A stretch of DNA of 64,000 nucleotides, taken from the NCBI GenBank assembly GCA_965368975.1, contig CBDUPA010000003.1, forward strand, positions 352,001-416,000, given 5' to 3'. The notes under the pieces were generated by a model. It searched no databases. It was not told the DNA's origin and saw only the letters and a program-made list of their open reading frames with translations. Numbering within the stretch: the first letter of the stretch is position 1; the number at the start of each line of letters is the position of its first letter. The DNA comes from an uncultured bacterium (GTDB taxonomy: Bacteria; Acidobacteriota; Thermoanaerobaculia; Multivoradales; JAHZIX01). Below, piece by piece: positions 19,814 through 24,200 of the stretch. The translations under genes and the position numbers were made by a program.

Positions 19814-20125
19814 TCAGTTCTCGGTCGGCGGAGGAGTGACCTCTTCTGTGGCCTCTTCTGCGGCCTCTTCGACTGCCTCGGTCGCATCGTCCACCGCATC
19901 TTCGACTGCCTCAGCGGCGTCATCGAGCGCTTCCTCGGTCGCCTCGGCCGCATCTTCGACCGCATCGCCCGCCGCTTCGGCAGCGTCTTCGACCGCCTCG
20001 GTCGCGTTGTCGACGGCTTCTTCGACCTGTTCGCCCGCGGTCTTCTCTTCGCTCTGACAGCCAGTCAGGCCCACGAAGCTGAACAACAATGCGACGGTCA
20101 CCATCGAGAGGATGTACTTGTACAT
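19814..20125 (-). CDS. Small acidic lipoprotein with 11-residue repeats
   Basis: AAGGAG RBS, MYKYILSMVTVALLFSFVGLTGC lipobox, then Ala/Glu/Asp 11-mers. Confidence 0.85.
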   Translation of the reverse strand: MYKYILSMVTVALLFSFVGLTGCQSEEKTAGEQVEEAVDNATEAVEDAAEAAGDAVEDAAEATEEALDDAAEAVEDAVDDATEAVEEAAEEATEEVTPPPTEN

Positions 20126-20215
20126 GGTTTTCTCCTTGTTTTGCAGGGTGAGTTGGCGCATGCTAGCAGGTTTCCCTGGGACGCGGGAACTGGGTAACGG
20201 GCGGTCCAGGGAAGA

Positions 20216-20887
20216 TTATTGGCAGTCTGCATCCGTGGCGGCGAGGGTGGCGATGGCGACCCACTGCTGGTCCCAGTTGCCGAGCGGCGGCAAACGGTCG
20301 CGTGATGGATGTAGACGGTGGAAGCTCGTGATGCCGGCTCGCTTGCCGCTGCTGCGGCCGTGGAACAGGTCGTAGGTCAGGTTGCCTTCGACCTCGTAGA
20401 CGTCAGTCACTACGCCAACGTGCTGGATGCCGCCTGGATTCTTCAGCAGGTCGTCGAGGTCGAAGCGGCGGTAGGTCTTGCCCTGCGTGCCGTAGAACAT
20501 CACGGCTCCCGGCCGGATGTGTTCTTGCTCGGCGACGGCATCGTGAATCAGGGTGAGGCGGCCCTGCTGGTGGTACCAGTAGGCCAGGTCTCGGGTGCTG
20601 CGGTAGGGATCGACGGGCGGCCGGTCGACGCCAGGGCAGCTCTGTTCGAGGGCGCCGAGGAAACGGTGGAAGATGCCCGAGCAATCTGTCAGCTCGGCGC
20701 TGTTGTAGAGCCATCGCCGAGCTTCGATGTCGAGCGCCACACGTCGAACCTGGGTGCACAGCGAGCTACTTCCACAGCTGGTGTCGAAGCTGGTGCTCTG
20801 CGACGTGGCGTCCGAGTCGATCCCCAGGACGTGGACGATCACCAGGAGACTCACGAGAGCGGCGATGAGAAGGCGGAACCTGTACAT
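20216..20887 (-). CDS. Secreted NlpC/P60-like cysteine peptidase
   Basis: N-terminal hydrophobic signal. Catalytic-type motifs DCSGIF, PGAVMFY, HVGVV and LFHG. Confidence 0.72.
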   Translation of the reverse strand: MYRFRLLIAALVSLLVIVHVLGIDSDATSQSTSFDTSCGSSSLCTQVRRVALDIEARRWLYNSAELTDCSGIFHRFLGALEQSCPGVDRPPVDPYRSTRDLAYWYHQQGRLTLIHDAVAEQEHIRPGAVMFYGTQGKTYRRFDLDDLLKNPGGIQHVGVVTDVYEVEGNLTYDLFHGRSSGKRAGITSFHRLHPSRDRLPPLGNWDQQWVAIATLAATDADCQ

Positions 20888-21061
20888 GTAGTACCCAACA
20901 GTCTATCGCGTTCGTTCCTGGACGTGCGATGAGGGAATGAGCTGAACTCTCAGGATGTTCCTGCGTACATCAATGCCGAATCGCCCCCTACGCTCACGGT
21001 AGCAGTTACCGAGAGTGCCGGAGGCACCTACATCTCCATCTCCAATTCTGAGGAGGAAGCT

Positions 21062-21207
21062 ATGAAGAAGCAACCAAGAAGAAGCTGACGTTGCACCGTG
21101 AGACCCTGAACGATCTGCAGATCCGTCAGGCTCGGGGTGGCGTCCAGGACTTCCAGTTCACCGAGCCGCCGATTTCTGGCTGTGCCGGCACGGAACTCTG
21201 CTACTAG
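21062..21207 (+). pseudogene. Lanthipeptide-like RiPP precursor with a 1-nt frameshift after codon 3-4 (real or sequencing error)
   Basis: AGGAGG RBS at 21051-21056, then ATG-AAG-AAG-CA. The shifted frame reads TKKKLTLHRETLNDLQIRQARGG-VQDFQFTEPPISGCAGTELCY*. A hairpin follows the stop. Confidence 0.65.
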
Positions 21208-21218
21208 AACGAACCTCC

Positions 21219-21267
21219 GCAACCGCGGTCCCTGGTGTCGCGAGCCGGGGCTGCGGTTGTTGCTTGT
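21219..21267. terminator. Stem-loop between the convergent RiPP-like ORF and icmF
   Basis: GCAACCGCGGTCCCTGG ... CCGGGGCTGCGGTTGT followed by TGCTTGT. Confidence 0.6.
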
Positions 21268-21288
21268 CGAGTCGGCTTTCCCGTCGCT

Positions 21289-24200
21289 TCACAAGTTGCG
21301 GCGATACTCGCCGCCGACCTCGTACAAGGCTCCCGTGATCTGACCCAGAGAGCAGCTGTTCACCGCCTCCATCAGCGCTGCGAAGAGGTTGCTGCCGCTC
21401 AAGGCCGCGTCCTGCAGCCGCTGCAACGCCGCTGGTGCCTTGTCTGCATGACGCGTCTGGAAATCCTCCAGGCGACGGATGCACTCCTTCTTCTCTTCGT
21501 CGGTCGCCCGCGACAGTTCAATCTCGCCTTGTTCGGACGCTTCTTCCGTCGTCTTGGGCAAGAAGGTGTTGACGCCGATCACGGGTAGCTCGCCACTGTG
21601 CTTCAGGTGCTCGTACTTCATCGAGTCTTCCTGGATGGTGCCGCGCTGGTACTGCAGCTCCATGGCGCCCAGCACCCCGCCGCGCTCGGTGAGTCGATCG
21701 AACTCGGCCAGCACGGCTTCCTCGACCAGGTCGGTGAGTTCTTCGATCACGAAGCTGCCCTGCGTAGCGTTCTCGCAGAAGGTCAGGCCGAATTCTTTGT
21801 TGATGATCAGCTGGATCGCCATGGCGCGACGAACCGACTCTTCCGTCGGCGTCGTGATCGCCTCGTCATAGGCATTGGTGTGCAGGCTCTGGGCGTTGTC
21901 GAAGGTGGCGAGCAGGGCCTGCAAGGTGGTGCGGATGTCGTTGAACTGAATCTCCATGGCGTGCAGACTGCGACCACTGGTTTGGATGTGGTACTTCAGT
22001 TTCTGGGCACGTTCGGAAGCGCCGTAGAGGCGATCCAGGGCTACCGCCCAGACGCGCCGGGCGACCCTGCCGATAACGCTGTACTCGGTGTCCATGCCGT
22101 TGGAGAAGAAGAAGCTGAGATTGGGTGCGAAGCGGTCGACATCCATGCCCCGGGAGCGGTAGTACTCGACGTAGGTGAAACCGTTGGCCAGCGTGTAAGC
22201 GAGCTGATGGATCGGGTTCGCGCCAGCCTCCGCGATGTGGTAGCCGCTGATCGAGACGCTGTAGAAGTTGCGGACGTTGTGGTCGATGAAGTACGCCTGC
22301 ACGTCGCCCATCATGCGCAGCGCGAACTCGGTGGAGAAGATGCAGGTGTTCTGCCCCTGGTCTTCCTTCAAGATGTCGGCCTGGACGGTGCCGCGGACTC
22401 TCGCCAGCGTCTCGCCCTGGATGCGTGCGTATTCCGCGTCGCTGAGCAGGGCGCGGACGTCGTCCCAAGTGGCGCCGCGCAGGGCATCGGGCTGCAGCTC
22501 TTCGGCCTCGCTGATGTCCAGCCGGCCCTCGGCGCGCAGGAAACGGCGGCACTGCTGGCGCACGGCGGTATTGAAGAAGAAGGCCAAGATGGTGGGGGCC
22601 GGGCCGTTGATGGTCATGCTCACCGAGGTGGTGGGGTCGCACAGGTCGAAGCCGGCGTACAGCCGCTCGGCCTCCTCGACGGTGAACACCGCGACGCCGC
22701 TCTCGCCGATCTTGCCGTAGATGTCGGGCCGCAGGTGCGGGTCCTCACCGTAGAGCGTGATCGAATCGAAGGCGGTCGACAAGCGCGCCGCCGGCTGGCC
22801 GTTGGCGAGCAGGTGGAAGCGGCGGTTGGTGCGCTCGGACGGCCCCTCTCCGGCGAACATGCGCGTCGGGTCTTCGGCCTGACGCTTGAACGGGAAGACT
22901 CCACTGGTAAAGGGATACTCTCCTGGCACGTTCTCGGTCAGACGCCAGTACAGGCGATCGCCCCAGCCGGAGAAGCGTGGGCGCGCGACCTTGGGGATGC
23001 GACTGTCGGAAAGCGTCGTGCGGTAGTTGGCGACCCGGACTTCCTTGCCGCGCACGTGGTACACGAATTCGTCGCCCCGGTACTGCGCGTCCCAGGCGTC
23101 CCAACCGCGCAGCAACTCGAGGCAGCGCGGTTCCAGCGCCTGCAATTGGGTGTTGTAGGCGTCCATCAAGTCGGCTGCCCCTGTCTTACCGGCGTTCGTC
23201 GCGGCCTGAATCTCGTTGGCGGAGAAGCCGGTCAGCACCGATCGTCCCGTACCAGCCGCCAGCGAGCTGGTGCCATCGCCGAGCAGAAAGGCGATAGAGC
23301 GTTCGAGGGCGTCCAGGTCGGCAGCGACTTCGGCTTGCGCTCGCGCCCACGTCCGGTACTGGCGGCAGGCATCTGAGATCTCGCTCAGATAGCGTTCCCG
23401 GCCAGCTGGGATGATGTGCTGACTCGTGTCGGTGACGCGCCCCGTCCCGGCCTCGTAGTGTGACGTCCAGCCAAGGTCGAAGCGTTCGTTCAAGGCGCCC
23501 ACCAGGTGTCCATAGAGCGCGTTGACCCCGCTGTCGTTGAAGTGCGCGGCGCTGGTGCCGAAGACCGGCAGCGACTCCAACGGCTGGCTCCACAGCTCGC
23601 GGTTGCGCTGGACTTGCTTGCGCACCTGGCGCAAGGCGTCCTCGCTGCCGCGGCGGGTGAACTTGTTGATCGCCACGAAGTCGGCGTAGTCGAGCATCTC
23701 GATCTTTTCCAGCTGCGTCGGAGCGCCGAACTCGCTGGTCATGACGTAGAGAGACAGGTCCGAGACTTCGATGATCGCATTGTCGCCCTGCCCGATACCG
23801 GCGGTCTCGACGAAGACGAGGTCGAAGTCGTCCTGCGCGACGACATCGACTACGGGCGCCAGCGCCGCCGAGACCTCGCCGCGGGCTCCGCGCGTGGCGA
23901 GCGAGCGCATGTAGACGCGGGGGTTCTTGAGACTGTTGAAACGGATGCGATCGCCAAGCAGCGCACCGCCGGTGCGTCGGCGTGTTGGATCGACGCAGAC
24001 GATGGCGACTTTCTTGTCCGGGAAATCGTGGACGAAGCGACGTACCAGCTCGTCCGTCAAGCTGCTCTTGCCAGCGCCGCCGGTACCGGTGAGGCCGATG
24101 ATCGGTGCGCGCTTTCCCTTGGCTGTACCTTCAGCGGTGGCAGACGCGGCAGTACCGTTTTCAGCTGCATACTCCGCCGCGGTGACGCGCCGGGCCAGCG

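Follow-up and report, generated by a model that had tools for sequence, protein, structure and literature searches.

The question raised by this locus was whether an apparent intergenic gap, within the 64,000-nt stretch of DNA that was analysed (the window), holds the gene of a lanthipeptide-type precursor put out of frame by a missing base, and whether such a gene is still active, as an earlier note on this DNA had proposed. The signals behind that proposal were borne out in the sequence: an AGGAGG ribosome-binding site is followed by ATG-AAG-AAG-CA-ACC and by a shifted frame that ends in TAG at 21207. The features are collected in Table 1, where frame A is the frame of the ATG and frame B the shifted one. 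Frame B is closed upstream by a TGA at 21049-51, remains open from 21052 to the TAG at 21205-07 and translates as GGSYEEA-TKKKLTLHRETLNDLQIRQARGG-VQDFQFTEPPISGCAGTELCY; it contains no ATG, GTG or TTG before the TTG at 21091, so that no alternative start includes the leader, exactly as had been stated. With one base added to codon 4, MKK. would run on into TKKK... and the peptide would have 48 residues (3 + 1 + 44), the length predicted beforehand. The GC content at third codon positions (GC3) was higher in frame B (0.80) than in the remaining frames (0.60 and 0.42), and the frame-B core contains a Gly-Cys pair.

Table 1. Features of the locus; positions are those of the window.
Feature	Position	Strand	Description	Basis
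Shine-Dalgarno-like GAGGAGG	21050..21056	+	5 nt upstream of ATG 21062-64; AGGAGG at 21051-56	sequence
Frame A, putative ancestral start ATG AAG AAG CA.	21062..21088	+	now an 8-codon ORF, MKKQPRRS, with TGA at 21086-88	
Break	21071..21073	+	codon 4 short by one base (CA-/ACC)	DNA alignment with paralogs
Frame B, remaining leader TKKKLTLHRETLNDLQIRQARGG	21073..21141	+	LxLxRx5L motif, Gly-Gly end	leader HMM, 29.0 bits, E 4.6e-6
Frame B, 21-aa core VQDFQFTEPPISGCAGTELCY and stop TAG 21205-07	21142..21207	+	2 Cys, 3 Ser/Thr	
TTG, first canonical start of frame B	21091..21093	+	2 nt past the frame-A stop; 38-aa product with truncated leader; use speculative	
GC-rich hairpin	21219..21260	.	separates the peptide gene from the icmF-like gene that converges on it (stop 21289); possible two-way terminator	

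The terminator-like hairpin reported after the TAG was also recovered (17 pairs and one bulge, -33.3 kcal/mol, z -2.08, with 6 of 200 shuffles equally stable); a weak T-rich tail lies next to it on the 3' side, and a terminator consensus scan marked its 3' part, 21243-21258, as terminator-like. Rfam gave no family at E <= 1 in 20700-21450, Pfam gave no match in the frame-B peptide, and no sigma-70-like site was detected in a scan of 20600-21600. The neighbours of the locus encode a molybdopterin oxidoreductase, an Ala/Glu-rich protein of 115 aa, a family-less protein of 223 aa and, in convergent orientation, an IcmF-like protein of 1205 aa. The 223-aa protein (20216-20887, minus strand, upstream and divergent) displays an N-terminal hydrophobic stretch and has no Pfam or NCBIfam family; the weak matches of the 115-aa protein (19814-20161, minus strand, also upstream and divergent) to lipoprotein Ag473 and CsmC look compositional.

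Whole-genome scans with PF04738, PF05147, PF14028, PF13575 and PF03412 gave no LanB, LanC, LanM or C39 match on contig C3, the 449-kb contig that carries the locus, and no radical-SAM/SPASM gene was present among the called genes within ~3.5 kb of it. The statement that the window lacks maturase genes thus held for LanB, LanC and LanM, whereas for radical-SAM enzymes it was covered only within the latter distance. The description of the locus as a stand-alone precursor, with no maturase nearby, was upheld.

In the genome, a tblastn search and a motif scan revealed dozens of small ORFs with the pattern MKK-basic-KLxLxRETLxxL..GG and a Cys-rich tail. A leader HMM, seeded with 42 small ORFs of this genome from which the locus was excluded, was run against the complete set of 133,041 ORFs (stop to stop, 25 aa or longer); frame B was the top non-seed match (29.0 bits, E 4.6e-6), and the best match in the reversed-sequence control reached 16.0 bits. 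When the break was read as X, the read-through peptide aligned with the leader model from end to end (positions 1-30, 35.5 bits), the MKK of frame A occupying positions 1-3. Profile A1, made from 30 full-length members, matched the locus with 38.0 bits (E 1.6e-8), a value obtained partly by construction since A1 includes the locus as one of its rows. The sole leader match among curated families was NCBIfam NF038153 (lant_leader_L1a, 'class I lanthipeptide'), for which the frame-B fragment, lacking the MKK start, scored 15.2 bits and remained under the curated cut-off of 22, although 16 paralogs of the locus pass it. The leader motif LTLHRETLNDL corresponds to LxLxRx5L, that is, to the LxLxKx5L type, and is followed by ..ARGG; the core, with its three Ser/Thr and two Cys in 21 aa, has the capacity for thioether rings. 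The Shine-Dalgarno (SD) site and the ATG AAG AAG start are both there, but the frame is off by one base. Cognate LanB and LanC enzymes are encoded elsewhere in the genome. Judged from its sequence, the locus genuinely belongs to the class I lanthipeptide precursors with an LxLx(K/R)x5L..GG leader, in agreement with the assignment made in the earlier note. One tblastn match to the core, at C13:4481-4540, was discarded as a chance look-alike lying in an alternate frame of a membrane-protein gene.

The genome check proposed in that note, for paralogous small ORFs and for maturases, gave both: 53-55 precursors together with LanB, LanC, LanM and three C39 frames. At E < 0.05 the leader HMM detected 53 precursor copies in 36 loci on 19 contigs and profile A1 gave 55 matches, which substantiates the suggested dispersed precursor library. 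The members share a common build, consisting of an SD site, MKK, a basic stretch, KLxLxRETLxxL..GG and a hypervariable core rich in Cys/Ser/Thr. An SD tetramer occupied the matching position in 52 of the 53 members, the single miss being due to a start codon wrongly chosen in the analysis, and the usual opening was ATG AAG AA(G/A), as at the locus. For the 51 members whose leader was matched in full, its last two residues were GG (32 members), GA (14), AG (2), AA (2) or EG (1). Their cores could not be aligned with one another; their length ranged from 4 to 52 aa with a median of 28 aa, the median Cys count was 3, and 43/51 contained two or more Cys. The core of the locus is typical of this range. 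When the 200 nt preceding each of the 53 copies were tested for enriched k-mers, as a sign of a shared promoter, nothing convincing emerged, the top result being a 6-mer present in 8/53. The copy at C11:198921-199091 (L046:7001-7108), situated in a tandem group of four precursors, combines a good leader with a core of only 4 aa (..GGSVNK, 36 aa in total) and is probably a second decayed member of the family.

The position of the break was obtained from a DNA alignment of the locus with four paralogs. Compared to C23:22419 (MKKRTRKKLTL..) and C7:124369 (MKKQTFRKLQL..), whose leaders have the same length, the locus presented a single-base gap in codon 4, the site at which the extra base had been postulated; the two paralogs with shorter leaders presented clean 3-base gaps in the same alignment. 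The start codon was an in-frame ATG in 51 of the 53 members and an in-frame GTG in one, and it was out of frame in the locus alone. The missing base lies outside any homopolymer run longer than 2. The long neighbouring genes were intact (IcmF-like, 1205 aa; RpoC, 1391 aa; a PKS frame, 1917 aa), and the called ORFs had a mean length of 443 aa (n = 268). As assembled, the locus cannot give the full precursor.

We consider it probable that the locus is a recently inactivated pseudogene that suffered a real one-base deletion, because nothing in the assembly points to common indels, no homopolymer lies at the site, and dead copies are to be expected in a large family that evolves fast. The loss of one base in codon 4 would have left a well-placed ATG that now opens an 8-codon ORF, and a leader and core stranded in a frame devoid of a start; the locus would then represent one death within a birth-and-death gene family. 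The fully open frame B and the well-preserved leader fit a very recent break or no break alike. The active 'hidden' precursor of the earlier note was not supported: by the note's own criterion, according to which a true frameshift means a pseudogene, the latter is the likelier reading, since the full product is impossible as assembled and this is the only such copy among 53.

If the missing base were instead an error of the assembly or consensus, the gene would be intact in the organism and would encode a 48-aa precursor modified in trans like its 52 paralogs. Apart from the single-base gap no defect is present: the SD site and the ATG are intact, frame B stays open for all its 44 codons, the leader is undamaged both alone (29.0 bits) and read through (35.5 bits), and GC3 is coding-like. 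We nevertheless regard such an error as rather unlikely: the integrity of the long neighbouring genes and the mean ORF length given above give no hint of frequent indels, the site is not a long homopolymer, an open frame of 44 codons at such GC is not rare by chance (around 0.3 by our own estimate), and a fast-turnover family of 53 copies is expected to hold broken ones, the C11:198921 copy with its 4-aa core being a second.

Re-initiation of translation at the TTG at 21091, after the TGA at 21086-88, would produce a 38-aa peptide, M-HRETLNDL..GG, made up of a truncated leader and the full core. Stop and TTG are 2 nt apart, a distance over which stop-start coupling is known in bacteria, and a strong SD site and ATG lie upstream. 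The TTG, however, has no SD site of its own, the peptide would lack both the basic N-terminus and the first half (LxLx) of the motif, scoring only 15.9 bits against the leader model, and such a build was found in 0/52 paralogs, which makes this outcome improbable. It is harder still to believe that a programmed -1 ribosomal frameshift joins frames A and B and delivers the full precursor at a regulated level. The required shift is indeed -1, and two AGA codons, which we assume to be rare at such GC, are located just 5' of the frame-A stop; yet 21062-21088 contains no X XXY YYZ slippery heptamer, no structure lies close downstream, 52 of the 53 paralogs need no frameshift, and the alignment shows a simple one-base gap. 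Finally, a chance open frame in an intergenic spacer, with no gene remnant at all, can practically be dismissed: the ORF is short, the DNA is GC-rich, a word search of 5.8 billion proteins gave no candidate for the 45-aa frame-B peptide (proteins of 24-77 aa) and a 51-aa peptide query against public genome contigs gave 601 pattern matches of which 0 were confirmed, but the leader HMM gave 29.0 bits (E 4.6e-6) as against 16.0 bits for its reversed control, the SD plus ATG AAG AAG architecture is identical to that of the paralogs, and the Cys-bearing core is typical of the family.

The genome encodes a single full-length LanB (C13:48662-51790; open frame of 1167 aa, 1158 aa called) with both Lant_dehydr_N and Lant_dehydr_C. 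It forms part of a complete class I cluster at C13:45177-51790 (locus L051), together with two LanC (423 and 436 aa) and two precursors with the same leader, of 70 and 71 aa and with 7 Cys each. A 638-aa gene adjoins this cluster; it has no Pfam family at E <= 1e-12, and its NCBIfam glycosyltransferase match is weak (31 bits vs. a cut-off of 200). In addition, a LanC directly adjoins a precursor at C1:561790 and at C13:186580, while further LanC-domain frames and LanB-like genes, on C12 and C9, are each at least 40 kb from any precursor. There is one LanM in the genome (C18:1247-3760, a frame of 1191 aa); it lies ~1.2 kb from the start of its contig and its own precursor genes may be off the assembly. 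Three frames of C39-peptidase exporters (762-812 aa) were found.

Neighbours of the precursors were surveyed with 178 proteins against Pfam, of which 176 were heuristically called genes within ~3.5 kb of the 36 loci and 2 were added by hand; the caller overlooked real genes in at least one case, that of the LanC in L032. Lan enzymes were located beside family precursors at 3/36 loci, and the other 33 had no Lan enzyme within 3.5-6 kb. At the other loci unrelated genes, such as RpoC, tRNA synthetases, chaperonins, transporters and kinases, surrounded the precursors. For almost all copies the maturation enzymes would therefore be encoded elsewhere and act in trans. The most likely route for the intact members, deduced from how the families are defined, from the single complete cluster and from the co-occurrence data given below, comprises three steps: the single full-length LanB would dehydrate Ser/Thr in a Glu-tRNA-dependent manner, one of several stand-alone LanC would add Cys to the dehydrated residues and form thioether rings, and a C39-peptidase ABC exporter would cut the leader after Gly-Gly and export the peptide. 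Gene counts and co-occurrence suggest that the one LanB serves all copies.

No orthologous locus was found in a DNA search of 40 relatives, the genus being represented by this genome only, and the region downstream of icmF was not conserved in five genomes of the same family. In these five, neither NF038153 (0/5) nor profile A1 (0/5) gave any match. When A1 was searched at E <= 1e-3 in 41 related genomes, the precursors proved to have a patchy distribution within the order: 8 genomes bore them, including the present one (55 matches). Three genomes of another family within the same order, G011, G030 and G039, had 39, 30 and 23 matches, respectively, over many contigs, and the four further bearers had 7, 3, 1 and 1. 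Thus, the dispersed pattern is not unique to this genome, yet it was not found in the five other genomes that share its family. In 8/8 bearing genomes a full-length LanB was present at E <= 1e-105, whereas only 3/33 of the genomes without such precursors reached even E <= 1e-75; precursors were situated 2-4 kb from LanB in G007, G010 and G038. LanM, in turn, was detected in 4/8 bearing genomes and in 4/5 genomes of the same family, all of them without such precursors; G011 and G039, with 39 and 23 copies, had one LanB match each and no LanM was found in them. The precursor family tracks LanB, not LanM, and LanM was ruled out as its enzyme on this basis.

In public genomes, a search with a leader pattern derived from a five-row alignment confirmed 10 loci, in seven Thermoanaerobaculia, two other Acidobacteriota and one Phycisphaerales MAGs. 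An intact Met start was present in 9/10 (eight MKK.. and one MRK..), followed by a leader of the KKLTL(H/N)RETL type and a Cys-containing core; for the tenth (L071), the sequence before the leader showed no Met start in frame. The core of the locus was found in 0/10. The link to Bacteroidota drawn in the earlier note was consequently right as to the type of motif and not as to the nearest relatives, the closest leaders being in nine Acidobacteriota MAGs (seven of them Thermoanaerobaculia) and one Phycisphaerales MAG.

Class I LanAs whose LxLxKx5L leaders end in GG, along with C39 proteases, have been described from Bacteroidetes in the pinensin family (Walker et al. 2020, PMC7268733), and the maturation route proposed above agrees with that description. 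The locus shares with these LanAs, as represented by NF038153, the motif (with R for K), the Gly-Gly end and a Ser/Thr/Cys core, and LanB, LanC and C39 exporters are likewise found in this genome. It differs from them in being frameshifted, in scoring below the NF038153 cut-off and in having no adjoining Lan gene; moreover, SD sites are used in the host, whose DNA is GC-rich, and the MAGs with the nearest leaders are Acidobacteriota, mostly Thermoanaerobaculia, rather than Bacteroidota. In Thermoanaerobaculia, the tha/the clusters combine a LanM with a GMC oxidoreductase that forms thiazoles at Gly-Cys (2026; PMC13083261). Compared by this description, the two systems resemble each other in the Cys-rich cores behind a leader, in the Gly-Cys of the locus's core and in the related taxa that carry the closest leaders; they differ in that GMC_oxred_C has no match here and in that the present family occurs beside LanB/LanC and not beside LanM. 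A modification route of the ThaO type was ruled out, as no match to GMC_oxred_C (PF05199) was obtained in this genome.

With 53 copies in 36 loci, the family has the layout of a dispersed library, though it shows neither LanM nor Nif11 leaders as its hallmarks. A library of this sort has been elucidated by experiment for the prochlorosins, class II lanthipeptides with one ProcM and many Nif11-leader precursors scattered in Prochlorococcus/Synechococcus genomes. The likeness at the level of the genome is close: dozens of precursors, one conserved leader, hypervariable cores, and most copies far from the few synthetase genes. In contrast, the enzymes here are LanB and LanC (class I) in place of LanM, the leader is not Nif11, the phylum is another, and the likeness is one of genes. 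The family is an analogue of the prochlorosins and not a member of them. No description of a dispersed class I lanthipeptide library was found in the literature searched, mostly at abstract level.

We tentatively propose, with slightly less than even confidence, that a class I equivalent of the prochlorosin system operates here and in no fewer than three genomes, with 23-39 copies apiece, that belong to another family of the same order. Dozens of precursors with a conserved leader and hypervariable cores, encoded here and there among housekeeping genes, would be modified by one full-length LanB and a few stand-alone LanC, and the stretch 21062-21207 would be a freshly dead member that displays the birth-and-death turnover of the set. 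Taken alone, the locus is one broken copy of a known precursor type and matters little; its value is that of a pointer. A dispersed class I library is more interesting than an ordinary single copy, and the 53-55 scattered precursors with one leader, together with the single full-length LanB, suggest a natural combinatorial library made by class I enzymes. Should LanB and LanC have the broad substrate tolerance that the gene counts imply, peptide engineering would gain two attractive tools, and the roughly 50 cores would constitute a ready-made set of candidate products. As soon as reads or sister genomes exist, the break could be dated, and the copy would exemplify turnover in such a family.

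Other genes of related type were observed away from the C13 cluster. C9:118735-128334 contains several Lant_dehydr_N frames, one of them of 1698 aa with repeated matches, and C12:117344-120874 contains a split pair, in which Lant_dehydr_C (a 369-aa frame) comes before Lant_dehydr_N (a 922-aa frame); no precursor of the family occurs within 40 kb of either group, and both may belong to thiopeptide-like or other pathways. On C27, a RiPP-modifying enzyme of the MbnB/TglH/ChrH type (L062:3061-4098; PF05114, E 1.2e-61) is surrounded by several genes without a Pfam family and lies 2 kb from a precursor with the same leader (L062:6118-6279), which may follow a different modification route.
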